From an uncultured Pseudomonadota bacterium (GTDB lineage: Bacteria; Pseudomonadota; Gammaproteobacteria; Methylococcales; Methylomonadaceae), in the NCBI GenBank assembly GCA_903928965.1, contig CAIYSZ010000028.1:2837-66836 (forward strand): a DNA stretch of 64,000 nt, read 5' to 3'. The notes below the pieces were generated by a model. It was not told where the DNA came from. It saw nothing but the letters and a program-made list of their open reading frames with translations, and made no database searches. Below are positions 25,929 to 52,052 of this stretch, one piece after another. Within the stretch, counting starts at the first letter, position 1. Each line of letters opens with the position of its first letter. The translations under genes and the position numbers were made by a program.

Positions 25929-25938
25929 CGGATTCTCT

Positions 25939-27786: not shown

Positions 27787-27823
27787 TAGTTGAGTAAGTT
27801 TAATTCCTTTTCACGCCAAGATG

Positions 27824-28495: not shown

Positions 28496-28507
28496 GGGCT
28501 TGTGCGC

Positions 28508-28912: not shown

Positions 28913-28918
28913 GTTTGA

Positions 28919-30801: not shown

Positions 30802-30817
30802 AGCAATAGTTATGCCA
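30802..30817 (-). promoter_or_regulatory. Sigma-54 -24/-12 promoter for the exbB...tpsB operon
   Basis: Minus strand TGGCATAACTATTGCT. Confidence 0.8.
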
Positions 30818-30856
30818 TATAGGCTGTGTCCATATAACAACAACTTGCATGCAAAT

Positions 30857-30915
30857 TGTTGATTGGATGTTGATATATCAGCATGTTGTGTTGATTAGGT
30901 GTTGATATTTGAGCA
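30857..30915. promoter_or_regulatory. Tandem enhancer (UAS) sites
   Basis: TGTTGATT-GGA-TGTTGATATATCAGCA (30857-30883) and TGTTGATT-AGG-TGTTGATATTTGAGCA (30889-30915). Confidence 0.7.
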
Positions 30916-30952
30916 GATGGTTGCTATATACGCGAAAACATATCGCACTTTC

Positions 30953-33900
30953 CTAACCGCCGCAACCTTTTTTGTTCTCCTTGATGTCGCTGACGCTGCA
31001 ACCGCCGAAGCTCAACAAGTCCATGCTGAGCAGGGTGACGGGGTTTTTGCTTTGCGCGTCGGAGGCGCTATTGCCGGTGTTGTCCGTGCTGCTGGTTTGG
31101 GTTGCGGTTTTCGCGGCGGAGGCGGCGGCGCTATCCGCGCCGCTGACCGTGGGCACGACGACGGCGGCGGGCACGCCGACGGTGGCGCCGCTGGCCGAGA
31201 TGTTGCTGGCCCCGACCACGGCCGTGGCGGCGATGATGATATTGTTGCCGGAGATGCCGGCCTCGCCGGCGTTGACCACGCCCACCGGCGCGGCCAGATA
31301 CACGTTGCCGCCGCCGATGGCTTGAATGCCGCTGCCGGAAATGACCGGCGGATAAGTGATCAGGATTTGGCCGGCGGGGGTGACGCTGGCGACCGGGGCC
31401 GGGGCGGAGACTGCGCTTTTGGCGCCCTTGCCGGCGTCGATGCTGCCCGCGGACGACCAAGCGGTGATGTCGCCGCCGCCCAAAGTGAATACCCTGGATT
31501 GGTTGACGTTAAGATCGTTGTTCGTCAGGACGTTGACGTTGCCGGTGGTTTCAGCCACGATGCCGAGATCGCTGGCGCCTTTGATGACGCCGGCCAAGGC
31601 GCCGGCCAGGCCGACGTTGATGGAGCCGCCGGGAGTGAGTAGATTGATGTCGCCGCCGGATTCGGTTTTGATTTGGCTGAATACCAGGTCTATGTCGCCG
31701 CTGTATTTGGTTTTGGCCGGGAACAGGGCGTGTATGGCCTGGTAGCCGATTTGGTATAGGTCATAGCGTTTGTTTTGCGGCGCGGCGGCGGCGAGGGAGG
31801 CCGAGCGGGAGATTTCCTTGAACAATACTTGCAGGAATTTGTAGATTTGCGCGCGCTGTTGGTCGCTGCTCAAGCCGCTTAGGCCTTGCAGTTCCGGATA
31901 TTGGCTTTGGTATTTAGCGATGAAATTATTGAAATCCAGCGCGCTGCCGGTTCCGCCCGCGCCAGCCAGTACTTGGATGCTGGCCCCGGTTGCGCTCAGC
32001 GCCGGGTTGTTCAGATTGGCCACGGTTTGAATGCCGACGGAGCCGCCCAGGTTGATATTGCCGCCGGCGATGACTTGCAATTGGCCGGGGCCGGCCAGGG
32101 TAATGGCTTCGTTATTTTCTAAAATCACGCCGTTGGCGTTGATGGGCGTGTCGTAGCTGATGGAGCCGCCGGCTTGAATCAAGGTCACGTCGCTGGCGTT
32201 CAGGTTTTGCCCTTGCAGACTGAAATTGGTGATGTTTCCACCGGCGATGACGTCGCCGGCTTCCGGCAGCCACAGGGTGAATTCCGCCGAGGCCGGAAAG
32301 CTCAGATTTCCATGCAAGGCATCAATCAACGGGGTCTGATTTGAGCAGGCTTGAGTTTGTAAGGCGCAGTCATGCACTGGGATGAGGGCGTGCATGGATG
32401 CCTGATTGCCGTTTGAGTTAGGGTCTAGCAGTTCCCTAGTCAAATAGGATTTGGAAGATATGTCTCCGTCCAGGGATGGGGCTGGATCCGCCACGCCGGG
32501 CAGCAGGCTGGGGTCTGCGTCGGACATGGATATGTCGATGGATGAGGTTCCGGCGGCCAAGTTCAAACCAATAGTGTTGTAGGCCAATAATTGTAAATTC
32601 CCTTGCGGGGATGGATACAAAATCATGGACTTGTCAATGCGAATGTCGCCGCTTATGGCGGCGGCGCTGACCGCGCCGGGATAAATGTCGTATTCCACGC
32701 CGGATTCGTTGAGCAGCGGCAGGTTATCCAGGGCGGCAATCGTGGCTCCGTTATTCAGGAATTGCACGTTGCCGGCGGTGGAAAGCAAATTCACCGCGCT
32801 GTTCGCCGTGTAGGTAAAAAAGCGGGCATCATTATTTTTTTGGCCGTAGTCGGGCAAGGTGGCTTGGCTGAATAGCGTGGGGTTCATCACGCTGGACACA
32901 TCGATGTCTTGCCGCGCTTGCAGGTTAAACGTTCCATCGCCCAAATCCAGGGTTACGCCCACGGTTTGGCTGTTTCCGGCAACGGTGGCGCTGTAGCTGT
33001 TGATGGCTTCGCCGGCCTGCAAATCGCCGGTTCCGGCGGCGACGTAAAATTCGCCGCCGGTGATGTTTTGGCCAGCGGTGATATTTAGATTGCCGCCGCC
33101 GTTGACGACAGTGCCGTTACTGCTCCAAGCCGCGTTCGCATTCGCGTTCGCCAGCGCGGTCAATACGCCCATCGGCTTGCCGGTGGCGGGTATCATCACG
33201 CTCAAGGTATTCACGCTGCCGCCGGCTTGGATGCTGACGTTGCCGCCGCCCAAGGCGCCGACGTTTTGGTTGAAGTTGCGATTGTCCTTGCCGAAAACGG
33301 TGTCGCCGTTGGGCAAGGTGTTGTTGCTGGCGCTGTTGAACATATCGCCGCTGATGTTAATGCCCCAGGCGGTGGGTTCCGAATTAGCGCTGTTAGCGGT
33401 TCCGTTGTCCCAGCCGCTGGTGCGCACCAGCCAATCGGTCATCGCTTGGCCGGATTGCACGCCTTGGATATCGCCGCCGGCGGCGAGGGTGATATTCCCG
33501 CCGTTGGTCGGGTATTCGGCATAGAAGAGATTAGTCAAGCCGAACTGGGTGGGATCCAAGAGGCCGTAACGCAGCAATTGGCTGAGTTTAGTTTGATCCA
33601 GGCCGGCGATATAGTCTTGCAGGCTTTGGTTGGCCGGTTGCGGCGGCATGCCGGGCACGTTGCCCGCGATCAGGTCGTTAATAGTGTATTGCGCGGTAGT
33701 CCCCACCGTATAAATGGCGGAGGCGTTATTGGAGGTATCGCTGTTGTTGAGATTTTTATTGAAGACGATGTTATTGCCCGCGTTAACGTCGATAGCGCCG
33801 GTTCCGGTGCGTACCACCACTTGCGCGGTGACGGTTTGGCCGCTGCCCAATGGGTCTAGGGTTTGGTAGTCGGCGGCTAGGTTGACGTTGCCGCCAGCGT

Positions 33901-36900
33901 TCAAATTGTAGTTCCATGAAAAGCCGGCTTGGATCACGTCCTGAAAGAGGCTGGTTTGATCCAGGGTCAGAGTATTGCCGTCGGTCGAGGCGGGGAGGAT
34001 GTCGTCGGTTGGAATTGGAGTGGTGGCGAGGGCGTCGCTGATGCTGGCGTTGATGTTAAGGTCGCCGGCGGCGCTGAGCGTCAAAAAGCCGGCCACGTCG
34101 CCGTCGCCGTCGCCGTAGCGCCAGCCGGAATTCCAGCTAAAGGTGTTGCTGTTCCAGCCGCTGCCGCCGGATTCAAAATCCCAGGCGTCCTTAAGCGTCA
34201 AATCGCCGTCGCTGCGGACTTCCACGCCCGGACTCAAGATCAAGCCGGCGGGCAGGGTCAGCGCCGCGCCATTGGCGTCAATATAGCCGGCGGCGTTCAT
34301 GAAGTTGGCGGTATCGGTTTGCCATTGCGTGATGTTGGCGGCGGTGATGATGTTGGCGTTAACCGTATTGGCGTTGATGTCGTTATAGATGCGCGTCGCC
34401 TCCAGGGCGTCGCCGCCGGCGCGCGCGCCTATGATTTGCGTGTTGAAACCTACGGCGTTGATTTGGTCGTTGGCGTCCTTGCGGCCGGTGCGCAGATGCG
34501 CCAGGCCGCCCTCGCCGGTTCCTGAAGCGGAGACGTTGATGGTCCCGCCGGCCAGATTCAGCACCCCGCTGCCGCTGCTGTTTTTATATACGGTGTCCAA
34601 GGTGACCGAGCCGCCATTATTATTACCGGATAGCGCGTTGGCCAAAATGCTGGAGCCGGCGGCTAGGGTGATGCCGGTTTCGCCGTCCAGCGTGACGCTG
34701 CCGGCACTAGCGCCGCCGGCGTTGATTTCACCGGCCAGGATCACCGCGCCTTGGTCGGCGGCGATTTGCACTTGCTGGGCGGTAAGCGTGGTTCCGGTAT
34801 TGATTTGCACGTCGCCGGCGGTTTGCTCCAGGCTGATTTGTCGGGTAAAGCCGGCGGCGGCGATTTTTTGGTCCAAGGCCGCGACATCACCCAGATTGGC
34901 GGCGGTCAGTTGCAGCGCGCCGCCGGTGACGCCGGAGGCCAGGCTAGTGGAGCCGCCGCTCGCGTTTATACTGCCGTCCCACACGAATTGGCCGGCCGGC
35001 GCTTGCACGCTCAGAGTGCCGGCATTGCTGACTTCTTGCTTGTTCAGCACCGCGCCGTTTAATTCGACGTTGACGCCGCCGGCCAGGGTGACGTCGCCTT
35101 GGGCGGCGGAGAGGCTGAGTTTGCCGGCCGGGGCGGCTTTATACGTCGTACTGGTGTAGTTAACGATGCGGCCGGACAAATCCACGCCGCCGCCTTGTAA
35201 ATTGATGGGGCCGTTGCCGGTGGCCAGGCTTAGATTGCCGGCCGGCAGATTGAATTGCGCGGTTCCGCTGATACTGCCGCCGCTGATGCTCCAACTAGCC
35301 CCAATGCCGGGGGTGGCGGCCGCGGTTGCGCCGCTGGCGGCCAGCGTCACGTCGTAGTTTCCGGCGTTGATGCTGGTGGTCGCGCCGGCCCCGCCGATCA
35401 GTTGCGCGGCGGTCAGGGTTAGATTGCCGGCGACGCTCAGCGCGCCGGGGCTGGCGGTGACGGTGTCGCCGGAGGCGTTCTGACTGGAGCCTTGGCCGCC
35501 GATGGCGTCCTTGGCTTCTAAGTTGACTTGGCTAAAACCGGTGATGGCGTATTGTCCCGCGCCCAGGGTGATGTCGTTGGCGTTTAAGTTCAGAGAACCG
35601 CCGCCGGTTCCGGCGTGGGCGGAAACCGCGCCGCCGCTATTGCTCAAGGTAATGCCGGTGGTGGTTCCGCTGACGCCCAGGCTGACGTTGAGTCCGGCGT
35701 TGGCGAAACCGTTGATGGCGGCGGCGGAGATTTCGATGGTTTTGCTGTTGACGGAGGCCGCGCCGTAAAGGTCTAAATCGCCGCGGCTGTTAAGCGAGAT
35801 GTCGGACAGTTTTTCCGGCAGCGCGGACAATACCAGGCCCGGCGTGCCAGCCGGCGCGTCGCCGAGGCTGATGCGGTTGGCGGTCAGCGCCAAGGAACCG
35901 CCATCCATTTGAATGGAGCCGTCGAACACGGTGTTCAGACTGGAATCCAGCAGCATTGATTGGCTGGCGTTCAGCGCCGCGCCGGCCGCGACGTTCAGCG
36001 TTCCTTCCGCGCCGGCGATGGCCGCGCCGCGAACGATAGTGTCCTGGCCGCCGTTGGACAGGCGCAGGATGGCGCCGTCGCCGTTGCCGAGATTATTGCT
36101 CAAGGTCAAGGTTTCGCCGGCTACTTTGTTGGCGCTATGGGTGTCGATTTCGGCGTTGGCGGCTATATTGACTTGGTTGACGGCGGTGAACAAAATTTCA
36201 TTGCCGGTCAAGGCTTGCGCGCCGTTGACGTCGCTAGCCACCGTGACCGTATTGGCGGTAATGGTGATGGCGTTGCCGTTGCGCTTGCCGCCCAATAACA
36301 GGCTGGGGGCGTTTAATTTAGTTAATTGTCCGGCCACCAGGCCGACCACGCCGGAGCCGAGAGCGCTTAAGTCGCTATTTGAACCCACCACGGTCAGATT
36401 ATTGCCGCTGATGTTGACTTGGCCGCCTAGGCCCACCAGGCCGCCGAAACTGGCCGGATTCGCCAGCAGCGCGGCGTTCAAGTTGAGGCCGGCGGCGGCG
36501 GCGAGTGTCAAGCCGCCGGCGTCCCGCGGCAGTTGCGCGCCGGATTGGCTAAAGAATTGATCGGCCAGATAAGCGGTGAATTGCGATGGGCTGGCGCTGT
36601 TGGTATTGCTGGTGATGACGCCGGCGGCGGATTCCGAGAGGGAGCCGGTGAACAAAGAGCCGGGCTGTACTTCAAAACCTTGGGTTAGGGAATTGGCGGC
36701 GGCGGTTCCGGCGACGCCGTAGCGGCCGGCTTCTATGGTATAGCCGGACGCGGTTTCGGTATTTTGCAGCAGGCCGCTGGTTCCGGCGACCGGGGTGACT
36801 AGAAACGCGCCGGGCAATAGCGCGTAATGCGCCGGCAACAGTGTATACCAACCGGCGGCCAGTCCCGCGCCGCCGTCCAGGTAGACGCTTTCGCCCATGC

Positions 36901-39900
36901 CGAGGCTGTTTAGGCCCGAATTGGCGTATTGCGTGGGATCGTAAGGGGTTAAAATATTGTCCACGCCGGGAAGTATGGCGTAGGAAGTGGCGCTGTTCAA
37001 CGCGTCGCTACTGCCGCCGTTGCCGGGTATGAATTCATAGGCGTACAATTCGCCGCCGCCGTTTAGATCAATGGTGGCGTTGGTTTGCAAGTCTATGCCT
37101 TGCCCGCTGAGCGAAAGACTTTTCTGCGGCAAGTTGGCGGCGGTAATGACGATATTGTTGCTGCCCGATAAAGGATATAGCCATTGGCTGCCGCCTTCGC
37201 CGACGCCGAACGGGACCACCGCGCCCAGGCCGGAAACCGAGGTAACGCTACCGGCGGTCAATTGCAAGTTTTGCGCGGCGTTCAAGTTAAGAGAGCCGAA
37301 CGGGGCGTCGAGCACGCCGCCCTGAATAATGTTCCTGGCGTTAATCGTAACGCCCCCCCCGGCCGACAACGGGGTTTGCGTATTGTCCTGGCCCGTGGTT
37401 TGCAGGGTCACGGAACCGGAGACGTTGAAGGTGTAATTGGTCAGGGTGGCGGGATAGATGCGTTCTGCGCCAATGACCAAATCGCCGGCTAGATTCAGTT
37501 CGCCGAGGAAATTTTTATTGCTGGTGTTGGAATCACCTAGCATGCGTACATCGCCCCGGCTTTGCAGATCGACCTGATCGAAACCGTTGAAAGCGACGCC
37601 GCCCAATAAATCCACGCCTTGGGCCGCTACCGTGAATTGAGCGTTTCCGGCGACGGCTTTGTTGGCTAGTAAGTAGTTGTTGGCGGCGATATTGACTTTA
37701 CTGGAGCCGAGTTCGACATAGGCCGCGGTAAGCGTTACCGAGGCGGCGGCGGACCCGGCCTCAATGCTCGGGCTGTCGAGGATGATTTGGCGTTCCGCGG
37801 CGAGCGAGACGTCGCCATTGAATTGAACGGCGCCGGTCAGAGCGCCATTATAGGCTTGCGCATCTGTTTTCAGGCTGATGGAGCCGAAGCCGGCGGCGTT
37901 GATGGCGTCGGCGCCGAGAAAACCTTTGTCGGCGTCGGCCACTGGCGCGTTGGCGCCTTCGACCAGTTGCACGGCGGGCGCGCCAGCGCTAATTTCCAAA
38001 AGGCTGAAGAGTTGCGGATTCAGTTGATCAGGAAATACTCCGCCTGCAATCTGGGGCGATGGTTCATTTAGCAGGGAGCGATCCAAGATTACCGACAAGG
38101 TTCCGCCCAAGGTATTGGGGCTACTGGCGGCGGCTTTGAATGCACCGCCGGCGATGATGCCCTGGCCGGATGCTAGATTGATAGAGCCGCCGTTGCCGGC
38201 GACCAGGGTGGAGGTATAGCCAACATTGCCATTGGCCCCGGTTTGTAATTGATCCAGATTGGCTGAGCGGGCGGAGACGTCGATCAGCGAGCCGGATTCG
38301 GCGACAATGTAACCGCGGTTGGCGGTCAGATTGACTGTGCCGCCATCCTTGACCACGCCGCTGGTCAAGCCGTTGATTTTGGGTTGGTCAATGACCGCGC
38401 CCGGCGCGAGAAGTTGGCTTGCGCCGCCGAGCCAGATGCCTTGATTGGCGAAATAGCCTAAATCGTTATTCGCCACATTGATAGTCAGCGAGATGTTTCC
38501 GGCCGGGGCGCTGATGACGCCGTCCGCGTAAATTGAGGTGTCGGAGCTCAGGCTGACCTTGCCGCCGGGTTCGACGCCGATGAAACTGCCGGCGCCCAAG
38601 ATTAGGGATTGCGCGCGGTTTTGGGTTTGGGTTTCGGCGAAGCCAAGGCTAAGATTGACCGGATTGCGCGTGTCGGCTGTTAAGAGCACGGGTTGGCTAA
38701 TGGCGCGCAAGTTGGCGCCGCTGGCTGTCTGTTGCGAATCCGCGTTCAGTTGTAAATTCTGTTGCAGCAGATTGAATTGGGCGTTTTTCTCAACCGTTAA
38801 ACCGTAGTTATTGGAGGTCAAGCTATAACTGGCAAACCCGCTTTGTTGAAAAAACGCGTCGGTGAATATCAAAGGCGCGGCTGATTGGGCGTTATTGACT
38901 TGGGCCAGATTGTCGGCGAGGATGATTTCGGCGGAGTTAACACTGAGTGAGCCGTCTTGTTGCAGGCCCCAGGCGCTGAGAGAGCCGTTTAATATAACGT
39001 TGGCATAAGCGGCGGTTAGGCTGATGGCGCCAGCGGAGCCGTCGCTTATCGCGCCGCTGGCTTGCAGCCAGGCCCCTGCGTCGGCGCTGATGCGGCTGCC
39101 CGGGGCCAAGGTCAAGTTTCCTTGTTCCGTCTTCAGTGTGACCTTGCCGCCGTTGATATTGATAAGGCCCGGAGTTTGGTTGTTTTGCAGCGCCAGCCAA
39201 TCATTGACCCAGTGTCCGCTGACGCTAATCAGCGCGGTTTTGCCCAGTGTGGTGGCGTCGTTGTTGAGTTCGACCGTGCCGGAGGGATTGATGATTTGAC
39301 CATTGATGTCGGTATTGCTCGCGTTGATTTGCAAGTCACCCGCTCCCGGCAGCCGCAATACGCTGTTCTGAGTTTGGGTGAAGGGGGCGTTATTAGTACT
39401 GATGATGATGTTTTGCAAGCCGGAGTTACTGAGCATGGCGCTGTTCAAATTCAACGCCACCGGTTGGCCGGCTGTGCCGGCGGCGGGGAATGCCTGATTT
39501 TCGGCAATTGACAAGCCGCTATTGCCGTTGCCGAGCACCACGGCTTGATCGCTGGATAGGTTGCCATAGTCCAATTTGATGGTCAGCTCGCCGCCGGCGG
39601 CGCGGTCAGAGGCGGTGCGTTGGTAAGCGCCGTTTTCTGCTTGGCCGTGGATGCTTGCGTCCAGCAGCGCGTTGTAACTCGAAATACTGACCGCGCCGGC
39701 GGCAAAGCCCTGGATGTAGCTTGGGCTGAAACTGGTTTGATTGACCAGCGCGGTATAAACCAAATTGGGGCTGGCCGTGCCTAGGTTATACAGTTGGCCG
39801 TTGGATTGCAAATAGGTGGTGGAGATATCCGCGCCTTGGTAGGCGATGGAGCCGCCGGAAACGTCCAGAATCGAGCCGGCGGCGGCGATGACGTCGCCGG

Positions 39901-41551: not shown

Positions 41552-41721
41552 GGCAGAAAGTGCGTGTTGGTTTCAGGATTAAATTCAATAGGTAAAGTCA
41601 TTTAAACGCTATAGCCGTTTTAATAGTCGCATAAGCGCAATAAGTATCCGGGTGCGCATGGGTAGTGGTTGGCCAAAGGCCTTTTATGTCTCATGAACTT
41701 AAGTCATTTTGCTAAGTACTC

Positions 41722-41767
41722 AAAATAAAAAAGCGTCGGCATACCCTAGGCAGGGTAATGTCGACGC
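41722..41767 (-). terminator. Intrinsic terminator
   Basis: Minus strand GCGTCG-ACAT-TACCCT-GCCT-AGGGTA-TGC-CGACGC followed by TTTTTTATTTT. Confidence 0.8.
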
Positions 41768-41888
41768 ATTTTGTCTTTCCATTTGTCTTTCCATGTTCCT
41801 GTGCGGCCACTCCTTTGAGGTTTCCCTTTGGCCTGTTCCTGCAACATCCCTGTTTTAAGTCGTCCGTTACTTGATTTTGTCCAATGTT

Positions 41889-42092
41889 TGCGCCGTTCCG
41901 TTAAAACTCCGTTTCTGGCGTATCCTGCCACCTCCGTTGTAGGGGCCAGTCACTTGACCCTGCCGCTTACCCTGCGTGTGCGCCGTTCCGTTGAAAGTCC
42001 GTTTCTGGCGATTCCAGCCACTTCCGTTGTGGGGGCCAGTCACTTGACCCTGCCGCTTACCCTGCGTGTGCGCCGTTCCGTTGAATATCCGT
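41889..42092. repeat. 90-bp tandem repeat, about 2.3 copies
   Basis: Unit begins TGCGCCGTTCCGTT at 41889, 41979 and 42069. Confidence 0.95.
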
Positions 42093-42226
42093 ATTCGGCA
42101 ATTCCCGTCACATCCCTGATGGAGCCTGTCCTAGACTCGGTTGCTTCCTGCTTACGCCTAATGGTTTATCCTTGGCAAAGCACATCCTTGTGCGGTAATC
42201 CTTTAGTTAAACCGATTCAAACGAGA

Positions 42227-43960
42227 TTATTTCAGCTCGATGATGTCGGTTTTCACGGTTGCAACCGGTCTTACACCCAAGTGGGTGTAACCGTCCGAAC
42301 CAACATGGCTAAGTGGAACCAAGGGGTTGCTGATTTGGAATGGAATGTCCAAAGCCACGCTGCCGCCCACCGGATGCGAAGCGGTAGTGGCGAAAATGCC
42401 TGGATTGCCCCAAGGTTGCGCTACTTGTGGGTTCACGGAAGCACCTACGCGGATGCTGCCCAAGTCATTGGCAAATGTAGTCAGGAAACCTTGGATATCG
42501 CTAGACAGCGGAATGGTAGGGATGCTGCCGGTTGCACCGGTGTAACCCGCGGCGGATTGAAACACCACCTCGCCTTCGGCCCAGAATGGGTAGCTGCCGG
42601 AGGAAACGTTTTCCACGGTTGGCGCGTAGCCGTCGATTTTTACGAAACGCCAGTTAGCGCCAATAGTAGTGTTGGTGCTGGAAAGGTCGTTGGCGGTGGC
42701 GGCGTCTATGGCGATACCCCAGTATTTGGCGCTGTTTGGATTCAGCTTGCTGGTGTTGGCGCCGGTTTGCCAGTCGAACAGCAATGCGCCGGTGTTGTTA
42801 ACGCCGGTGGCGGCGACCACGGCCGGATGCTGAGTGGCGAAAACGGCTTTGGTTTGAGAAGAAGCGGCGGCCGGCGCGGTTGAGTTTTCCGCGTACGGAT
42901 AGTTCAAGAAGGTGGCGTAGGCAGCCGCGCCAACCGCGGCGCCGTTGTTACGGATACCAACCCCGATTGGCGTCAAACCACCGGTAACGGTAGGCGCGGT
43001 AACGCCAGCGGTGGAGGCGAAGGACACCAAGGTTGCGGAAGTGCCATTGCCTAGGTTGACTTCAACGTTGTTCCAGTCGCTGATTTTGCCGGCCAGGACG
43101 GAGGCGACAAAGTCACGGCTTAAGCTAGGCAGGCTGGCGGCGTTGCTGTAATCGCCGATGGTGGTGGTGGCGGGCAATTTACCGTTGGCGATTTGCGCGG
43201 CTTGCAATACTTTATACAAGTCGGTGGTTACGGCGATGCCATAGGTCAAGCCGCCGGTTGGAATGCGTGACAGCGCGGACAAATCGCTAGGCGCCGCGCT
43301 GGTGTTCCAAGGCGAGGTGTTCGCGTTGGTGCTATATTCGGTGGTTTGAGCAGGGTAGTTTCTGGATTGAGAGTTCAATACCAGGGATTCGGAGTCCACG
43401 CCCGTGAAACCGCCGTGTGAAAAATGTTGCACGATGGAAGCCAAACCGCTGGTGGTGGTGTCAATGACTTGACCCCAGGAGCCGTCGATGGTGTTTTGAG
43501 TCCAGTTGCCGTAGCTGGCGGTGTTGCCTTGGGAGGCGTTAGCGGTTGGAGTATTGAAAATATACAGTTGGTCGATGGCGGTGCCGGCCAGGACTGGAAT
43601 CACGCCATAGCCCGCGGCGCCGCGCGAACGTTTGCCAAAATAGATTTTTTTGCCTTGCAGGTTGGCCGGCAGGTTGCTGCTACCGATGAAGTAATAACCT
43701 GTGAAGTTGGAGCCCCAGCTGCCAGAGGCTTGGCTGGTGGTGGTGGCGTCGCGGAACACATCCAAAGTGCCGGTTGCCGCCAAGGTGTTTTTCACTACGT
43801 CGTCAATGGCTGAGTCTTGCGCCGCGCCGCCGGAGGCGAAAATCACGTAATCCGGGGTGGCGTAGCCGGAGGTCCAAGGGGTAATGGCGGAAGCTGAGTT
43901 AGCGCCGGCCAATAAGGCCACGGCGATACCTAGTTTATTTAAAGTGTGTGTGTGTTTCAT
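42227..43960 (-). CDS. Secreted 577-aa protein with PstS/PBP-like motifs; no Cys and no internal Met
   Basis: Signal peptide ending ASA; LSRDFVASVLAGKISDW and KIDGYAPTVENVSSGSYPFW resemble periplasmic-binding-protein motifs. Confidence 0.85.
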   Translation of the reverse strand: MKHTHTLNKLGIAVALLAGANSASAITPWTSGYATPDYVIFASGGAAQDSAIDDVVKNTLAATGTLDVFRDATTTSQASGSWGSNFTGYYFIGSSNLPANLQGKKIYFGKRSRGAAGYGVIPVLAGTAIDQLYIFNTPTANASQGNTASYGNWTQNTIDGSWGQVIDTTTSGLASIVQHFSHGGFTGVDSESLVLNSQSRNYPAQTTEYSTNANTSPWNTSAAPSDLSALSRIPTGGLTYGIAVTTDLYKVLQAAQIANGKLPATTTIGDYSNAASLPSLSRDFVASVLAGKISDWNNVEVNLGNGTSATLVSFASTAGVTAPTVTGGLTPIGVGIRNNGAAVGAAAYATFLNYPYAENSTAPAAASSQTKAVFATQHPAVVAATGVNNTGALLFDWQTGANTSKLNPNSAKYWGIAIDAATANDLSSTNTTIGANWRFVKIDGYAPTVENVSSGSYPFWAEGEVVFQSAAGYTGATGSIPTIPLSSDIQGFLTTFANDLGSIRVGASVNPQVAQPWGNPGIFATTASHPVGGSVALDIPFQISNPLVPLSHVGSDGYTHLGVRPVATVKTDIIELK

Positions 43961-44022
43961 GTTTTAAACTCCAAAATTGAATGACGGCGATTCCTTGGAA
44001 TCCTTGGAATCGCCTGGTTTTA

Positions 44023-44922
44023 TTAGGCTTTAGTGCGTGAAGATTTGCGGCTCAAGCCCAGAGCGCCGCACAAACCGGACAAGAACAACCAAACGCCGGC
44101 GGGAACCGGAACCGAGCTTGCGCCAACCGGGTTATAGGTCAAAACGTCATTAGCGTTTAGGCTGAAGGTGCCCAATTTGCTAACAATGTTGGTGTCCGCG
44201 CCGTCGCCCAGCAGACCGTTTTGGTTGGTGACGAAGTAGAACGGAACCGAGTTAGCGCCGATGGTGCCTTCATAGGGAAACAAGGCAGAGTAAGCGAACG
44301 CGCCAGTGCCAGCCGCCGGAGCCAATACTTCGTTGCTGACGGCGTTCAACTTGGTCAAGCTGACGTTGGTCGCCGAAATGGCGCCGCCCACGGAGTCGGT
44401 GTTGACCGAAGCTTGTTCGTTTAAGCCGGCCCAACCGGCTAAGTTACCAGACCAAACGGCGGTGCTTTGCTCGGTGGCAACCACGCCCCAAGGCGCTACC
44501 GCGGTTAAAGGATAGCCGCCGGCGACATCATTCAGGTTGGTCAAAGTGTTTTGATCCAATACTGAAGCGCCGACCACGGACCAACTCAAGTGCGCGAGGT
44601 CGCCAGCAATGCTGTTGAAGTCAGCATAGTTGCTCAAGTTCCAGCTCAAGGTGGAGCTTGTGCCTTGGGTGCCGTTGACGAAGCTGGAGTAAGTCAAGCC
44701 GCTGTGGTCCAGGGACAAATCCAACAGAAAGGTTTTACCAAAGTTGGCGGAACCATTTAACTGGTCGTTAACCGCCAACAAGATGGAAGAACCCGCGCCA
44801 TTGTTGATTGGGGTTTGTTGCGACGAATCCGATGGATCGTAAGTCAGGGTTAACGCCGCGTTGGCGCTGCCCGCGACTAACGCCAGCGCAATCGCCGCGG
44901 ATAGCTTGTGAATATTTTTCAT
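44023..44922 (-). CDS. Secreted protein with VPxPA/PEP-CTERM-like C-terminal sorting signal
   Basis: Signal peptide ending ANA; C-terminus VPVPAGVWLFLSGLCGALGLSRKSSRTKA. Confidence 0.88.
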   Translation of the reverse strand: MKNIHKLSAAIALALVAGSANAALTLTYDPSDSSQQTPINNGAGSSILLAVNDQLNGSANFGKTFLLDLSLDHSGLTYSSFVNGTQGTSSTLSWNLSNYADFNSIAGDLAHLSWSVVGASVLDQNTLTNLNDVAGGYPLTAVAPWGVVATEQSTAVWSGNLAGWAGLNEQASVNTDSVGGAISATNVSLTKLNAVSNEVLAPAAGTGAFAYSALFPYEGTIGANSVPFYFVTNQNGLLGDGADTNIVSKLGTFSLNANDVLTYNPVGASSVPVPAGVWLFLSGLCGALGLSRKSSRTKA

Positions 44923-44994
44923 AATTTAAACTCTCTTTTTAAAAGTTAGTTAATAATTTTGCAGCAACAATTTCTGTTGTTGCGAAACCAGTAA

Positions 44995-45010
44995 GGCAAT
45001 AAATGTGCCA
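44995..45010 (-). promoter_or_regulatory. Sigma-54 promoter for the two surface-protein genes, with adjacent IHF-like site
   Basis: Minus strand TGGCACATTTATTGCC; AATCAATAATTTA (IHF consensus WATCAAN4TTR) at 45016-45028. Confidence 0.85.
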
Positions 45011-45082
45011 TGTTTTAAATTATTGATTTATAATTTAAATATCTTGTCCTGAAATAGAATGTGTTTTTTGGGAAACAGTTTA

Positions 45083-45109
45083 TGTTGATTTGCTGTTGAT
45101 ATTTCAGCA
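45083..45109. promoter_or_regulatory. Enhancer (UAS) site
   Basis: TGTTGATT-TGC-TGTTGATATTTCAGCA. Confidence 0.7.
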
Positions 45110-45253
45110 GCTTGCGGTATTCGATTCAGTATTATTCAGGAAAAACAAAATCTTATTAAAGTCGGTTGTCTGGTTTTATTGAAAAATTGTTTATTCAAAA
45201 AATATATTCTGTTTTAGCGTATTTTTTCAAAATTAATTTTCGCAATATATGTA

Positions 45254-45469
45254 TCAAAGGATATATTGGTCTTGCTGCGATTTTTCTTGATTTGATTCGT
45301 TAGGTTTTTTGCCTTGGTTAAATCGAAAGCGTTCCCGTTTATCTATTTGTACGATGCGGCCTTCATGCACCACAATTTCCAACGAACCGAAACGGATGTT
45401 TTTTAAAAAACCAATAATTTGAGTTATGGTCTCTTGGTATTCATCGCCATTGGGTAGATTTTGTTCCAT
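45254..45469 (-). CDS. YezD/DUF2292 (OscA-like) small protein
   Basis: FGSLEIVVHEGRIVQIDKRERFRF; this family is typically linked to sulfur-starvation loci. Confidence 0.85.
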   Translation of the reverse strand: MEQNLPNGDEYQETITQIIGFLKNIRFGSLEIVVHEGRIVQIDKRERFRFNQGKKPNESNQEKSQQDQYIL

Positions 45470-45562
45470 ACTGCGCCTATGTTTGCGGCAGTTAGCCGCT
45501 TTTGGTTTTCATTGGATAAAGGAGGGGCGTCCTAAGTTACGATCGTTTCTTTTCTTTAGTAA

Positions 45563-45578
45563 AGCAGTCTTTGTGCCA
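45563..45578 (-). promoter_or_regulatory. Sigma-54 promoter for the oscA-like gene
   Basis: Minus strand TGGCACAAAGACTGCT; degenerate UAS TGCTGATT-AGG-TGTTGAATTTTGGTCA at 45650-45676. Confidence 0.8.
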
Positions 45579-45776
45579 TTTTTATTTATTTGAAATATAA
45601 GGTAAATTTTTCGCATTTACCCTTGCGGTGCTGGGCTTTAAGCAGTTTCTGCTGATTAGGTGTTGAATTTTGGTCAGCGGGCTGTAGAGAAGTTAGCGTT
45701 TAATTTTGATGCCTAAACGTAAAAAAAATCCGGCTTGCGCCGGATGCCCGAAGCGGGAAGGAGACAACACAAAAAA

Positions 45777-46712
45777 TTAGTGTTTGGCCGTGACGCCGCC
45801 GGCATGCGCCGGGTAAACGGCCGAGTTTATTTGCCGGGTCGGGCTAGGATTTTTTTTTACCGGCTCGGATTGCGAATCATGGTGTTGTTGGCCGTCATGT
45901 TTAGGTTCATCGTATTGCACGAATTGGAAACCGTGGCGGCGCGCCAATTCAATGTGTCTTGTCGGGTTGGCGTTGAATAATACGCCTTGACCGCCTAGGG
46001 CGAGCCCGAAGCGGGCGAATTCTTGCGCCTGCTCCTCGAATTCATCGCCTCGTTGTTCATGGTCCGGGGCTTGCAGGCCGATGAAATCGGCGGCGGCGCG
46101 GTTGATGAAGGTTTGCGAGGTTTTGTCCAGGCTGCCCGCCGTGAACTTTAGCGCCAGGCGGTAGCCGCGGCGTTGGTAGTTTTCCAAGCCTTTCAGCAGA
46201 ATGGGGTAAAGCCGTAAATAGTCTTGGTCCACCGTGAGTACGATGACGATATTGCCGGTGTGCAGGCCGCATTTGTGGATGATTTCTTCAAAGTACGCGC
46301 CGTGATCGGATTTTACGCCGAGTATGTGCCGGGGGTCGACATCCAGAAACAGTAATTCCTCTAGGTGGGCTTGCGGCAGAAAATTCAGCATGTGTACGGT
46401 GCGGGCCAACCGGTCAAAGTCTATGACTGATTGGTATGGCGGATTGCCGCCGATATCGCCGGCCAAAGGCGAGTTTTCGGCCAATAGCGGCGGAAGTTGT
46501 TCCTCGCTGACATTCACGGTTAGTTGGGCGTAGCTGCCGACAGTTATTTCTAGCGCGTCGACGCAGCGGACCGGTTTCAGGCGGCTGCCGATGCGTAGCG
46601 GCCCGAATAGCGCTTGCGCCGCGCCGTCTTGCAGAGTAAAGGCGCGCGAGGTGTTTTTATGTTCTTGTTCCAAACGGTCGTTGAAATATTCGACCAGTTG
46701 TTGTAATGGCAT
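45777..46712 (-). CDS. Degenerate EAL-domain-like protein
   Basis: FDRLARTVHMLNF, LFLDVDPRH, YQRRGYRLAL.F: EAL-fold features without the EAL motif. Confidence 0.65.
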   Translation of the reverse strand: MPLQQLVEYFNDRLEQEHKNTSRAFTLQDGAAQALFGPLRIGSRLKPVRCVDALEITVGSYAQLTVNVSEEQLPPLLAENSPLAGDIGGNPPYQSVIDFDRLARTVHMLNFLPQAHLEELLFLDVDPRHILGVKSDHGAYFEEIIHKCGLHTGNIVIVLTVDQDYLRLYPILLKGLENYQRRGYRLALKFTAGSLDKTSQTFINRAAADFIGLQAPDHEQRGDEFEEQAQEFARFGLALGGQGVLFNANPTRHIELARRHGFQFVQYDEPKHDGQQHHDSQSEPVKKNPSPTRQINSAVYPAHAGGVTAKH

Positions 46713-47262
46713 TCATGGCTCCGGAATGGCTCGAATGTTGGATAAAAAAAGTCGGCGGGAGCGAGTTCCCGCCGAACAACGTCCCTGTTTAACAGCCATA
46801 AGTTGCAAGCTTTAAGGTCAGACTAAGACAGCTAATTAAGCCGCGGGTATAGAGTAAGCGTTTATTAATATTTTTAAAAACGATATAAATAGATTTATAT
46901 ATCTCTTTTTTGAAAAATCCTTAAATTTCAAATACTCGGCATGGATTGGGCCATAGGCTTTTGATTGTGTATATCAAAAAATGTGATATATTTATCTAAT
47001 TTTATAATAAATAATGTTTTTAATGACTTAGGTGATATTTTTGCTTGACATGGATTGAGCTAAACTGTTACTGTAATAAAAAAACAAGCTGACCGGACTT
47101 CCGGAAGCCGTGCCTTTTGGCAAAGCGGAATTCTGAAATCATGTGTGGATAATCTATAAGGAAACAGATTATGAAGCTTGAATTAAAACTTGTAGTTTTT
47201 ATTTATTTTGTCGAAGTTTATTTTTCAATGGTTGCGAGCGGCCGCGCCGCCGAGGCGGCGCA

Positions 47263-48162
47263 ATGACGACGCAAAACCAGGAACCTTGGCGTATCGATTT
47301 TTTGGTCAGTGAATTGCGCCGCTTGCGCTTGACCTCCCTGGAAGCTCGGCAACGCCGCGACCATCCGCCGAAATTGCCCTCGCGTAAGGCATTGACGCAA
47401 ATTGTAGACGATTTGGCGGCGGCTTTGTTTCCCAATCGCTTGGGTCAGCCGGATATCAGCCCGGAAGAGGTGGATTATTTTGTCGGCAATACCTTGGCCT
47501 CGGTGTTAAGACGCTTGAGCCGGCAAATCGCCTTGGAGTTGCAATTTAATGCCGAGCAAAACCAGCAGGTTTTGGACGCGCATGTGGAGGCGTTGGCGCT
47601 GACGCAGCAATTCGCCGCCGGTTTGCCGGATATCCGCGCCTTAATCGATACCGACATCAAAGCCGCGTTTGAGGGCGATCCGGCGGCGCGCAGCATTGAC
47701 GAGGTACTGGTTTGCTATCCCGGCGTCAACGCTATGATGCATCAACGCATCGCGCATCGTTTGTACCGCTTTGGCGCGCATTTGTCCGCGCGCATGATCG
47801 CCGAGATTGCGCATTCAGCCACTGGTATTGACATTCATCCCGGCGCTGAAATCGGCGAGAGTTTTTTTATTGATCACGGCACCGGCGTGGTGATTGGGGA
47901 AACCGCGGTCATTGGGCGGCGGGTGCGTATCTACCAAGCGGTGACTCTGGGCGCCAAACGTTTCGATAAGGACGAGCAGGGGATTCTAGTGAAGGGTAAC
48001 GCCCGGCATCCGATAGTCGAGGACGACGTGGTGATTTATGCCGGCGCAACTATTTTAGGCCGCATCGTGATCGGCCAGGGTTCGGTTATAGGCGGTAACG
48101 TCTGGTTGACGCATAGCGTGCCGCCGGGCAGTCAAGTCACGCAAGCGCATGTGCGCAGCTAG
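47263..48162 (+). CDS. cysE: Serine O-acetyltransferase (CysE/EpsC type)
   Basis: GDPAARS..EVLVCYPG, TGIDIHPGA.IG..FFIDHGTGVVIGET, IYQAVTLGA, RHPIVED. Confidence 0.93.
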   Translation: MTTQNQEPWRIDFLVSELRRLRLTSLEARQRRDHPPKLPSRKALTQIVDDLAAALFPNRLGQPDISPEEVDYFVGNTLASVLRRLSRQIALELQFNAEQNQQVLDAHVEALALTQQFAAGLPDIRALIDTDIKAAFEGDPAARSIDEVLVCYPGVNAMMHQRIAHRLYRFGAHLSARMIAEIAHSATGIDIHPGAEIGESFFIDHGTGVVIGETAVIGRRVRIYQAVTLGAKRFDKDEQGILVKGNARHPIVEDDVVIYAGATILGRIVIGQGSVIGGNVWLTHSVPPGSQVTQAHVRS

Positions 48163-48276
48163 TGTTGCAGGAGGGGTGAAATCTTAGCATTTCGCGTTTG
48201 AACGGCCGGCCGCGGCGTTTTCCTTTCCGCATCCGGTTTTTACATTATCTTTTATTCATAATTATAGGTAACCAAA

Positions 48277-49194
48277 ATGTCAGACATACATCAAGCTCAT
48301 ACCGCGTTAGGCGACGTCGCGGCGCGTACATTATCCAACGCTACTAAAACCGTGCCTATGATGGGGGCCATCACCCCGCGTTGGTTGGTGCATTTGTTGC
48401 AATGGGTGCCGGTTGAAGCCGGTATTTACCGGGTGAACAAAGTCAAAAGCGAAACCAGCATCGCGGTTGATTGTTCCAGTCTGGACGAGAAAGTGCTGCC
48501 GCAAACTTATGTGGATTACGAGGAATGGGGCCGCGAGTACCGCTTGAACGCGGTGAACACGGTGTTGGACGTGCATACTCGGGTAGCGGATTTGTACAGC
48601 AGCCCGCATAACCAAATTCACGAACAATTGCGCTTGACCATCGAAACCGTGAAAGAGCGTCAAGAAAGCGAGTTGATTAATAATGCCGAATACGGTTTGT
48701 TGAACAATGTTTCGCAAAGCCAAAAAGTGTCCACTCGCTCCGGCGCGCCGACTCCGGATGATTTGGACGAGTTGATTTCATTGGTGTGGAAAGAACCGGG
48801 TTTTTTCTTGGCGCATCCTAAAGCCATCGCCGCTTTCGGCCGCGAGGCCACTTGGCGCGGCACCCCGCCTCCGACTGTTAGCTTGTTCGGTTCGCAATTT
48901 TTGACCTGGCGCGGTTTGCCGTTGATTCCGACCGACAAATTGAAAATCGAAAACGGCAAGACCAATATCATTTTGCTGCGCACCGGCGAAAGTCGGCAAG
49001 GGGTGGTCGGTCTGTATCAACCGAATTTGACCGATGAGGTGCACATGGGCTTGTCGGTGCGGTTTATGGGCATTAACCATAAGGCCATCGCTTCTTATTT
49101 GGTGTCTTTGTACTGTTCCTTGGCGGTGTTGACCGAGGATGCCCTGGGCGTACTCGAAAATGTTGATGTAGGCCAATACCATGAGTATAAATAA
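48277..49194 (+). CDS. Family 2A encapsulin shell protein (SrpI-like)
   Basis: TALGDVAARTLSNATKTVPMMGAITPRWLVHLLQWVPVEAGIYRVN, PTPDDLDEL, GLSVRFMGI, ASYLVSLYCSLAVL; 305 aa, between cysE and a desulfurase. Confidence 0.92.
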   Translation: MSDIHQAHTALGDVAARTLSNATKTVPMMGAITPRWLVHLLQWVPVEAGIYRVNKVKSETSIAVDCSSLDEKVLPQTYVDYEEWGREYRLNAVNTVLDVHTRVADLYSSPHNQIHEQLRLTIETVKERQESELINNAEYGLLNNVSQSQKVSTRSGAPTPDDLDELISLVWKEPGFFLAHPKAIAAFGREATWRGTPPPTVSLFGSQFLTWRGLPLIPTDKLKIENGKTNIILLRTGESRQGVVGLYQPNLTDEVHMGLSVRFMGINHKAIASYLVSLYCSLAVLTEDALGVLENVDVGQYHEYK

Positions 49195-50785
49195 TCAAAC
49201 CTTGGAAAAATTGGCCGGTTTGGCCATGAGCGGAAGTTCGCCTTCCGCCGGCTTGCCGGACGCCGGTTTGCTGCGGCAATGGGCTAGCCAGTTGTTCGCG
49301 GCGATGCCGAACCAGTCGGCTTCGCTGGAGCCGGTGCAATACGCTCCGCAATTGAGCGGGGCAGGATTGCCTGCCTTGCCTGGCGTGGATTCCGGAGCGT
49401 TGTCTGCGTTGGCGCGGCGTTCGTTCACTAACCCGAACGACATTGGTTTGGCCCCGTGGCCGGTTCCGAGCGCCGGGTCCGGGGAGAGCGCCGCGCCGGT
49501 TAATTATTATTTCGTTAGCGAGTTGGCCAAGCATGCCGCGGACCCTTCATTGGCTCCGGCGGAGTTTGACGTGCAACGGGTGCGCCGCGATTTTCCGATC
49601 TTGCAGGAACGGGTGAACGGTTATCCGTTGGCTTGGCTGGATAATGCGGCCACCACGCAGAAACCGCTGGCGGTGATAGACCGGATCTCGGAGTTTTATA
49701 AACACGAGAATTCAAATATTCACCGCGCGGCGCATGAGTTGGCGGCTCGCGCTACTGATGCCTATGAACACGCGCGGGATGTGGTGGCGCGGTTTTTGAA
49801 CGCGTCGTCCAGCAACGAAATTATTTTCGTGCGCGGTTCGACCGAAGGCATCAATCTGGTCGCGAAGAGTTGGGGCAAGCAAAATATCGGCGCCGGCGAC
49901 GAGATCGTGATCAGTTGGCTGGAGCATCATGCCAATATCGTGCCTTGGCAGCAGTTAGCCGCCGAAACCGGCGCGGTGTTGCGAGTGATCCCGGTGGACG
50001 ATCACGGTCAGGTTATTCTGGCTGAGTTTCAAAAACTGTTGAATCCGCGTACCAAGCTGGTGTCGTTCACGCATGTTTCAAATGCCCTGGGCACCATTAC
50101 TCCGGCGCATGAGATGATTGAGATGGCGCACCGCGCCGGGGCCAGGGTATTGCTGGACGCTGCGCAATCAGTGTCGCATATCCGGGTGGACGTGCAAAGC
50201 TTGAATCCCGATTGGCTGGTGTTTTCCGGGCATAAAATCTTCGGTCCCACCGGTATTGGCGTGGTTTACGGTAAATTCGACTTGTTGGAGGAGACTCAAC
50301 CCTGGCAAGGCGGCGGCAATATGATAGAGGACGTGACTTTCGAGCATACCCGTTATCAACCGGCGCCGGCTAAATTTGAGGCGGGCACCGGCAATATCGC
50401 CGACGCGGTGGGACTGGGCGCGGCTCTGGAGTATTTGAGCGGTTTAGGCATCGAGCGGGTGGCGTATTACGAGCATGAGTTGCTGCACTATGGCACGCAC
50501 GTGCTGCAAGGCATTCCCGGCGTGCGCTTGATCGGCACCGCGCCGGATAAAACCAGCGTGCTGTCGTTCGTGTTGGCGGGTTATAGTCCGTTGGAGGTCG
50601 GTACGGCGTTGAATGAGGCAGGCATAGCGGTGCGCGCCGGTCATCATTGCGCGCAACCGATTCTGCGCCGCTTTGGGTTGGAGAGCACGGTGCGTCCGTC
50701 GCTGGCTTTCTATAACACCTACGAGGAAATCGACCGTTTGGGCGGCGTGATTAAACGCTTGCAGTGCCAAAAACGGTATTTTTAG
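49181..50785 (+). CDS. Encapsulin cargo cysteine desulfurase (SufS type) with N-terminal extension
   Basis: About 125-aa Pro/Ala/Ser-rich N-terminus, then FDVQRVRRDFPIL, WLDNAATTQKP, FSGHK (PLP Lys), RAGHHCAQP. Confidence 0.93.
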   Translation: MSINNQTLEKLAGLAMSGSSPSAGLPDAGLLRQWASQLFAAMPNQSASLEPVQYAPQLSGAGLPALPGVDSGALSALARRSFTNPNDIGLAPWPVPSAGSGESAAPVNYYFVSELAKHAADPSLAPAEFDVQRVRRDFPILQERVNGYPLAWLDNAATTQKPLAVIDRISEFYKHENSNIHRAAHELAARATDAYEHARDVVARFLNASSSNEIIFVRGSTEGINLVAKSWGKQNIGAGDEIVISWLEHHANIVPWQQLAAETGAVLRVIPVDDHGQVILAEFQKLLNPRTKLVSFTHVSNALGTITPAHEMIEMAHRAGARVLLDAAQSVSHIRVDVQSLNPDWLVFSGHKIFGPTGIGVVYGKFDLLEETQPWQGGGNMIEDVTFEHTRYQPAPAKFEAGTGNIADAVGLGAALEYLSGLGIERVAYYEHELLHYGTHVLQGIPGVRLIGTAPDKTSVLSFVLAGYSPLEVGTALNEAGIAVRAGHHCAQPILRRFGLESTVRPSLAFYNTYEEIDRLGGVIKRLQCQKRYF

Positions 50786-50795
50786 TAGTGTTGGC

Positions 50796-51848
50796 CTAGC
50801 CGGCTTTTTGTCCGCTCGGCAGCATGCCGTAACGTGCGAGTTTATGTCTCAGCACGTTACGGCTGATGTCGAGCAGGCGCGCGGTGTGCACCTGGTTTTC
50901 CTCGCAGAATTCGTAGGCGGTGCGGATGACGGTTTCTTCTATGATTTCGTAAAGTTTGGGCGGCCCTTGTTCGCACAGGCGTTGCAAGGCGCTTTCCAAT
51001 GAGGTGGTGGATACCATGGGCGCGCTGCTGCCATGGATTCTGACCCCGGACAGTTTGAAATCTTCAGGCCGTAGCCGGTTGCCCGGGCAGACCAGCAAGG
51101 CCCTATGCACGGCGTTTTCCAATTCGCGGATGTTGCCGGGCCAGTCGTAATTCAATAATACCAGTTCGGTGGCGGGGGAGAGTTTGATGTCGTTATATCC
51201 TAGCCGGTCGCCGTAGATTTTCAAAAAATGTTGCGTCAGGGGCAGGATGTCGCCGGGTCGGTCGCGTAGCGGCGACAGCTGCAGGGCGGCGACGTTGAAG
51301 CGGTAATACAAGTCGGCGCGAAAATGCGAGGCGGCCACCGCTTCTTCCAGGTTGACGTTGGTGGCGGCGATGATGCGCACGTCCACCGGCACCGGGGTGC
51401 GGGAGCCGACCTTGACCACTTCACGTTCTTGCAGCACTCTGAGCAGCTTGACTTGCAAGCCCAGCGGCAGGTCGCCGACTTCGTCTAGAAACAGGCTGCC
51501 TTTGTTGGCGTTTTCAAACCAGCCGATCTTGGTGGCCAGCGCGCCGGTGAAAGCGCCTTTTTCGTGGCCGAACAGTTCGCTTTCTATCAGGTTTTCGCTC
51601 AAGGCGGCGCAGTTGAGCGCGCCGAAAGTGTTGTTGTTGCGCTTGCTCAAGGCGTGAATGTGCCGGGCTACCAGTTCCTTGCCGGTGCCGGTTTCACCGA
51701 TGATTAACACGGTGGCGTCGCTGGGGGCGATGCGCTCAATTTGCTCCAGCAAGCGGCGGGAGACGGGATCTTCAAATACCAGAGCCGAGGCGCGCACGGA
51801 GAGTGAGAGCGACCGCGATTCCAGTTCGTCGAATGTCAGTAAGGTCAT
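50796..51848 (-). CDS. Sigma-54-dependent Fis-family activator lacking an N-terminal sensor (SfnR-like)
   Basis: [38 protein letters not shown]-terminal HTH; only about 20 aa precede the AAA domain. Confidence 0.92.
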
Positions 51849-51936
51849 GGCTTAGCTCGGCTGTTAGGTTTTGGCGCCTTAGTCATCTGGATGTCCGGCG
51901 GGCTAATAATCGTGTTTTAGTTTGCATTATTTTGCA

Positions 51937-51952
51937 TGCATTATTTGCGCCA
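51937..51952 (-). promoter_or_regulatory. Sigma-54 promoter of the activator gene
   Basis: Minus strand TGGCGCAAATAATGCA. Confidence 0.75.
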
Positions 51953-52003
51953 TGTTGGCAAGGTGTTAATATTAAAACATTTATTGTTTGTAAGTCAAAT
52001 AAA

Positions 52004-52052
52004 TGTTGATATATCAACAGCAATTTGCTGATTGTGTGTTTATATATCAGCA
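52004..52052. promoter_or_regulatory. Tandem enhancer (UAS) sites
   Basis: Perfect palindrome TGTTGATATATCAACA (52004-52019) and TGCTGATT-GTG-TGTTTATATATCAGCA (52026-52052). Confidence 0.75.

Follow-up and report, generated by a model that had tools for sequence, protein, structure and literature searches.

SfnR of Pseudomonas putida DS1 and the SfnR1-SfnR2 pair of P. aeruginosa are reportedly sigma-54 activators for the use of dimethylsulfone and methanesulfonate. Another sigma-54 system of reference is the PEP-CTERM box, whose motif 1 spans 17 nt, ends in TTTACA, and is set off by a spacer of 62.8 +/- 10.6 nt (Haft et al. 2006, PMC1569441). Here, we analyze a 64,000-nt stretch of DNA (the window, C28:2837-66836) from the assembly of an uncultured member of the Methylomonadaceae (3.25 Mb in 116 contigs, 54% G+C, 92% completeness), in which a first-pass annotation had noticed a repeated motif upstream of four sigma-54 promoters. 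We consider it quite likely that, as a whole, these repeats are best explained as the upstream activator sequences of a 350-aa receiver-less sigma-54 activator encoded in the same window (50796-51848), which would control a five-promoter regulon in response to sulfur limitation. The repeats form a three-part site, and the genes behind it most likely make up the regulon of an SfnR-like activator without a sensor domain; our literature search found no published description of this regulator or motif.

The tripartite site and its candidate activator

The motif copies were recovered at the positions first reported, namely, 30857-30883, 30889-30915, 45083-45109, 52026-52052, and, in degenerate form, 45650-45676, together with a perfect palindrome at 52004-52019. 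When the palindromic 16-mer TGYTGATWTWTSARCA was searched with up to two mismatches, 12 strand-hits were obtained in the window, while shuffled versions averaged 0.47, reached a maximum of 2, and never attained 12 in 100 trials. The hits fall at five places (30868, 30900, 45094, 52004, and 52037) plus two weak ones. With at most one mismatch, the 16-mer is found at just 9 places in the 3.25-Mb genome, 5 of which lie in the window. It is thus rare, contrary to the concern, raised when the motif was first described, that it might be common in AT-rich intergenic DNA. A position weight matrix scan of the genome had also been suggested, and the matrix built from five composite sites scored these sites at 39-44 bits, compared with 26 bits for the runners-up (one coding-region match and the degenerate 45650 copy, at 25.7 bits) and no more than 16.7 bits in a shuffled genome, so that the sites stand clear of the background. 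A fifth site lies outside the window, at C96:26722-26748 (16-mer at C96:26733), where the full composite TGTTGATTTGATGTTGATTTTTCTGCA is found 99 nt from TGGCACACAAAATGC; it provides a fifth instance, located independently of the window. Given the 92% completeness of the assembly, further enhancer sites may exist.

Read in the direction of transcription, the full site is arranged as PalA(16)-N3-AATCARCA-N5/6-PalB(16), with the consensus TGYTGAnATATCAACA-CCn-AATCARCA-n5-TGYTGnTnnAnCARCA across 26 non-identical promoters, in which the first and last 16 positions are the palindromes PalA and PalB and AATCARCA is the half-site between them. Half-sites of the ATCARCA type start at positions 10, 21, and 42 and those of the TGYTGA type at positions 1 and 33, which places all five on one face of the helix. 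The palindrome centers are 32 bp apart, the half-site is 11 bp and 21 bp from its neighbors, and the site shows dyad symmetry, with its several elements in helical phase. The enhancer ends about 52 nt upstream of the promoter sequence TGGCAY-N5-TGCT, with PalA at roughly -126 to -111 and PalB at roughly -93 to -78. Both palindromes are strong at the promoter of the activator gene, while PalB is weak at the other promoters, with the exception of the ExbB promoter.

The distance between the enhancer and the promoter is nearly invariant. The distal edge lies 98, 99, 98, and 100 nt from the -24 boxes at 30817, 45010, 45578, and 51952, exactly as the first-pass annotation had stated; at the promoter on contig C96 the distance, measured like the others to the T of TGG, is 99 nt. 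Over a set of 37 non-identical promoters, drawn from this genome and from other Methylococcales, the offset is 100 nt in 18 cases, 99 in 8, 98 in 5, 101 in 3, 97 in 2, and 102 in 1. The spacers are 68% A+T without conserved positions, and within this genome they are only 25-52% identical, compared with 67-89% for the enhancer. Since the spacers are unrelated in sequence, their fixed length points to a constraint rather than to a copied cassette. Matches to the integration host factor (IHF) consensus had also been reported at 30852-30864 and 45016-45028. Both exist, but they do not appear to be a shared feature: WATCAANNNNTTR is matched at two of the five promoters and in 7 of the 37 related spacers, the other three promoters have no match, and the one at 30852-30864 is the enhancer's own AATCAACA half-site. 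Judged from its sequence, the site is built like a classical sigma-54 enhancer; what is unusual about it is its tripartite composition and the fact that its distance to the promoter hardly varies.

The candidate activator (50796..51848, minus strand) comprises an AAA+ sigma-54 interaction domain (residues 24-189) with GAFTGA and Walker motifs, and a lid, followed by a C-terminal Fis-type helix-turn-helix (HTH). Its Pfam scores are 233 bits for Sigma54_activat and 22.6 bits for HTH_8, and it has neither a receiver nor any other N-terminal domain. The genome carries rpoN (479 bits against a cut-off of 277) and about nine sigma-54 activators. Proteins from Methylobacter, Methylomonas, Methylomicrobium, and Methylomagnum are 81-90% identical to the activator, compared with at most 55% outside the Methylococcales. 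Upstream of its gene lie a sigma-54 -24/-12 box, TGGCGCAAATAATGCA (51937..51952, minus strand, no mismatch to the search pattern), and, 100 nt from the -24 box, a complete tripartite enhancer (52004..52052, minus strand) made of PalB TGTTGATATATCAACA at 52004-52019, the half-site at 52026-52033, and PalA at 52037-52052. The gene thus has its own sigma-54 promoter, at 51952. Two sigma-70-like pairs, TTGACT-18-TAATAT and TTAACA-18-AATAAT (51940-51998, minus strand), are also seen between this enhancer and the sigma-54 box, or overlapping the box, and could represent a basal promoter that primes a feedback loop.

The motif and the activator travel together in relatives. The composite motif was found in 10 of 24 genomes of the same genus and in none of 16 from other families, and in all 10 of the named ortholog-bearing genomes tried (Methylomonas, Methylomicrobium, Methylobacter, and Methylomagnum); with the reversed pattern as a control, no genome of either set gave a match. 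These occurrences have a sigma-54 box at the same offset. The enhancer precedes the activator's own gene in at least 10 other genomes, and an activator ortholog is the downstream gene at nine of the loci. In a sample of 121 genomes spread evenly over the order, in which the activator was scored as present when a homolog reached E <= 1e-120, the motif was found in 16 of 35 activator-bearing genomes and in 4 of the 86 others (Fisher p = 2.6e-7), these four having a single match each. Two or more matches were found in 12 of the 35 and in none of the 86. The proposal that the motif is the binding site of the local activator is thus supported by its rarity, its fixed offset across genera, its place before the activator gene, and its co-occurrence with the activator over the 121 genomes.

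In the proposed mechanism, activator dimers would occupy the half-site as well as both palindromes and there build up the AAA+ hexamer, which would contact the sigma-54 holoenzyme across the AT-rich, sequence-unconstrained spacer of fixed length and open the promoter. That the spacer length is held to 1-2 nt suggests a stereospecific loop. Binding at the activator's own promoter would create positive feedback, and since the protein has no sensor domain, its amount would be the controlled quantity.

Target genes, a candidate leader RNA, and the possible signal

The motif had been expected to define a regulon genome-wide. It indeed delimits a small one of five promoters, which in this genome serve the activator gene, an ExbB-ExbD-TonB-Porin_5-TpsB operon, a PEP-CTERM-like gene followed by the gene for a 577-aa protein (p577), an OscA-like DUF2292 gene, and a gene pair on contig C96. 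The four -24/-12 boxes of the window (30802-30817, 44995-45010, 45563-45578, and 51937-51952) are all on the minus strand, as are the window's elements and genes described below unless stated otherwise.

The ExbB-like operon (23614..30739) has a double enhancer (30857..30915) composed of PalA at 30900-30915, a half-site at 30889-30896, PalB at 30868-30883, and an extra half-site at 30857-30864, with distances of 98 nt and 66 nt to its sigma-54 box TGGCATAACTATTGCT (30802..30817, no mismatch to the pattern). It encodes in order a DUF2341-LamG-ExbB protein (28919-30739), ExbD (28508-28912), TonB (27824-28495), Porin_5 (25939-27786), a 237-aa protein (25215-25928), and a TpsB/ShlB-type transporter (23614-25218). 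The ExbB promoter also has a third palindrome-like sequence, TGTTGTTATATGGACA (30827-30842, two mismatches), which is separated from the -24 box downstream of it by only 10-25 nt and could be a low-affinity site or chance. The next enhancer (45062..45109), with a weak PalB TGTTTTTTGGGAAACA at 45062-45077, the half-site at 45083-45090, and PalA at 45094-45109, is 99 nt from the box TGGCACATTTATTGCC (44995..45010, found by pattern search). It precedes the gene of a 299-aa secreted protein (44023..44922) whose C-terminus, on visual inspection, resembles a PEP-CTERM sorting helix, without a hidden Markov model match; the only Cys of this protein is within the helix, and homologs occur under the same enhancer at five loci in relatives. 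p577 (42227..43960), an exported protein, is encoded by the second gene of this operon. The OscA-like gene (45254..45469) encodes a 71-aa protein matching DUF2292 (57 bits) and, below the cut-off, the OscA model (43 bits), with the initiator Met as its sole sulfur residue; its box TGGCACAAAGACTGCT (45563..45578, pattern search) lies 98 nt from a degenerate enhancer (45629..45676) with a PalB-like sequence at 45629-45644, the half-site TGCTGATT at 45650-45657, and a degenerate PalA at 45661-45676. The C96 promoter serves a 535-aa PAP2-like exported protein and a 190-aa PEP-CTERM-like protein.

At the relatives' loci, the downstream gene is ExbB-like in seven cases, PEP-CTERM-like and/or a p577 homolog in ten, and TpsB in two, and SMBP, RibA, a Mop/TOBE protein, and a lipoprotein appear as targets in single lineages. 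In the window, a GGA-rich region with tandem repeats of about 90 nt follows p577 on its 3' side (41722-42226) and has a strong terminator near 41725. The 3532-aa FHA-like gene beyond was considered as a regulon member and is doubtful: the terminator separates it from the sigma-54 operon, so that it probably has its own promoter, and neither an enhancer nor a sigma-54 box was found in 41552-41725.

p577 matched no NCBIfam or Pfam model, and a sequence search of the PDB returned only noise. Its AlphaFold model (pLDDT 85, pTM 0.87) was assigned by Foldseek a predicted PstS/DING fold, with E values down to 5e-8. The family has 106 members, all annotated as hypothetical, with large insertions in the PstS/DING-like fold. 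The motifs SGGAAQD and RGAAGYG are conserved at the positions of the PstS hydroxyl ligands.

A candidate new leader RNA links relatives of the activator gene to cysteine metabolism genes. It consists of an invariant GCUGACCGGAnnnCCGGAAGCCAG, which forms a CCGG hairpin of 4 bp and continues into an intrinsic terminator whose stem shows covariation at seven pairs and is followed by U8. We found 30 distinct copies in 16 of 41 genomes of the family, with none for the reversed control, in front of cysK(-cysE), cysE-like-encapsulin-desulfurase, cysJ-like, porin, and activator-ortholog genes. The element has no Rfam match, and Rfam gave none in window positions 28000-53000 or in seven relatives' loci. 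At seven loci in relatives, the leader and terminator follow the sigma-54 promoter of the activator gene by about 110-120 nt, with the open reading frame (ORF) another 150-350 nt away; this long leader explains why the relatives' enhancers are 350-580 nt upstream of the activator ORF. The arrangement could be either gated autoactivation or a sigma-54-dependent small RNA, and the leader is possibly a new element in the regulation of cysteine metabolism. The window copy (47089-47109, plus strand), which is without a U-run, precedes the cysE-like gene (ATG at 47263). Between them, a 31-codon ORF, MKLELKLVVFIYFVEVYFSMVASGRAAEAAQ (47170-47265, plus strand), ends in an ATGA that overlaps the start of the cysE-like gene.

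On balance, we lean toward sulfur limitation as the signal to which the circuit responds. When sulfur runs short, the activator would then probably turn on a TonB uptake module along with surface proteins that are free of sulfur. An OscA-like gene is among the targets, and p577 and the 299-aa, C96, and OscA-like proteins have no Met or Cys outside their signal or sorting segments (genome median, 3.0%). p577 itself has none after the initiator, and of the members of its family, 79 lack both amino acids beyond residue 30, while a further 20 have just a single one there, a pattern that extends to 33% identity. The activator gene adjoins a cysE-like-encapsulin 2A-cysteine desulfurase cluster both here and in G133, a complete genome, and adjoins cysK in the genome G010; family 2A encapsulins are sulfur-starvation proteins (PMC8049743, PMC10836720). 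Furthermore, the activator's nearest paralog, on contig C66, is an SfnR-like regulator of an organosulfur cluster, and the activator gene of relatives carries the leader of cysK, cysE, cysJ, and encapsulin operons between its sigma-54 promoter and its ORF.

Several observations weigh against this account of site, activator, and signal. G010 and a second genome, G020, have activator orthologs 84-85% identical to ours, yet the motif is missing from both and no enhancer precedes the gene; they are also without close p577 orthologs. The leader of the window's own activator gene (51849-51936) is only about 75 nt long and is without the cys-type element. Because a terminator precedes the activator ORF in relatives, the sigma-54 promoter there may mainly make a short RNA rather than serve autoregulation. 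Moreover, a sulfur-poor composition is also seen in many of the giant repeat proteins that this genome encodes for secretion, which weakens it as a unique marker. Finally, p577 has the fold of a phosphate-binding protein, and the PAP2-like, SMBP, Mop/TOBE, and RibA targets would also fit the scavenging of an oxyanion or a metal.

The last three points are shared with the strongest alternative, in which enhancer and activator are the same and the cue is instead scarcity of phosphate, another oxyanion (molybdate or vanadate), or a metal, or else a surface-remodeling cue. We regard this as a possibility to be taken seriously, though a doubtful one. The top 42 PDB matches of p577 are all PstS/DING phosphate-binding proteins, and a TonB-ExbBD-porin module is among the targets. 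In contrast, the PstS hydroxyl ligands appear to be replaced by Ala in the SGGAAQD and RGAAGYG motifs of p577, and the near-total loss of Met and Cys is maintained in its family as far as 35% identity. The leader shared with cysteine genes, the OscA-like target, the conserved synteny with cysE-encapsulin-desulfurase and with cysK, and the organosulfur setting of the closest paralog all speak for sulfur. A fuller version of the sulfur reading can be offered tentatively: a new methanotroph sulfur-limitation circuit, in which a sensor-less SfnR paralog would act through a rigidly spaced tripartite enhancer (100 +/- 1 nt) and shift the cell toward a Met/Cys-free surface and a TonB and two-partner secretion (TPS) export-uptake module. 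A leader RNA of a new class, made of GCUGACCGGAnnnCCGGAAGCCAG and the terminator, would gate the expression of this paralog and would also control cysK, cysE, cysJ, and encapsulin operons.

Alternative binders of the motif

Sulfur limitation and the competing nutrient cues assume the same binder. The sites could instead be bound by the C66 paralog, or by both paralogs, which we consider unlikely. This protein is 56% identical to the activator, also receiver-less, with a similar HTH, and is encoded in a cluster (C66:1-8230) with an MsuE-like reductase, SfnB-like proteins, SfnG (631 bits), and SsuD (628 bits), a layout that is that of an SfnR regulator. In G133, the same paralog lies in an ssuD/sfnB/ribBA cluster where five sigma-54 promoters lie downstream of repeats of the TGCTGC..GCAGCA type. 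These related repeats are what would make the paralog a plausible binder, but they are distinct from the box of the window and differ from it at the inner half-site positions. The recognition helices also differ consistently between activator orthologs and paralogs, the latter having the form xSR(H/N)(V/I)VRA(K/R)L, and sites of the TGYTGAT type precede the gene of the local activator in many genomes. A search of this genome for the paralog-type box TGCTGCNNNNGCAGCA gave no convincing site beside a sigma-54 box; contig C66 is without its promoter regions. From the difference in the recognition helix and the presence of the box upstream of the ortholog's own gene, we infer that the TGYTGAT box belongs to the local activator.

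That the palindrome belongs to the NifA type (TGT-N10-ACA), or that a different activator binds it, is very improbable. TGTTGATATATCAACA does match TGT-N10-ACA, and the roughly nine sigma-54 activators of the genome include one near the C96 site. However, conservation covers all 16 positions and the half-site, many copies end in GCA rather than ACA, and no nif genes are among the targets, while the C96 activator is close to one site only, and co-occurrence and the autoregulatory placement favor the 350-aa protein. The C96 protein in question, a sigma-54 activator of 609 aa whose N-terminal domain is long (C96:29249-31078, plus strand), is encoded 2.5 kb from the enhancer copy on that contig, and no link between it and the motif was found. 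Lastly, although the regions are AT-rich, a chance likeness or a dispersed repeat element is effectively refuted by the shuffles, the genome-wide scan, the reversed-pattern controls, the unrelated spacers, and conservation across genera at orthologous genes.

Significance and comparison with described systems

Methylococcales are the main aerobic methane consumers of lakes and wetlands. The motif provides a testable regulon and DNA code for an uncharacterized activator that is highly conserved across their genera, and, with an enhancer-promoter distance that is near-invariant over unrelated spacers, the geometry of the loop in sigma-54 activation could be studied here in a clean natural setting. 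If the sulfur reading is true, this would be a bacterial case of swapping surface proteins for sulfur-free ones under sulfur limitation. The findings also tie the activator to the candidate leader RNA of the cysK/cysE type.

Among the known systems, SfnR shares with the local protein the form of a short sigma-54 activator without an N-terminal sensor domain, the activity of which would be set by its amount, and a link to sulfur starvation, which is reflected here in the paralog beside msuE/sfnB/sfnG/ssuD. The targets are different, as they comprise exported sulfur-free proteins, a TonB module, and an OscA-like protein rather than organosulfur oxygenases; no sfn/msu organosulfur oxygenase genes were found among the motif-bearing genes in the genome scans, those genes being located with the C66 paralog. 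The box is also different, being of the TGYTGAT type rather than TGCTGC..GCAGCA, a comparison drawn with the cluster of the sfnG-linked paralog, and the activator gene here has its own sigma-54 promoter. Being a paralog with a different box and different targets, the activator was not filed as SfnR.

The PEP-CTERM box resembles the present arrangement in that an enhancer motif, sometimes duplicated, and a sigma-54 box precede single PEP-CTERM-type genes, and in that the regulator was predicted from the phylogenetic profile of the motif (PMC1569441). The sequence is different here, the spacer is held to about 1 nt, and PrsR has a receiver domain. A PEP-CTERM box/PrsR regulon was considered and rejected, given the different motif and a best score in the genome for the PrsR model TIGR02915 of 353 against a cut-off of 502.6. 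With enhancers of the NtrC/NifA type, the site shares dyad-symmetric elements at -80 to -130, several per promoter and on one helical face, as well as the presumed role of nucleating the AAA+ hexamer; it differs from them in its layout of palindrome, half-site, and palindrome, in its near-invariant distance to the -24 box across genes and genera, and in apparently having no consistent IHF site.

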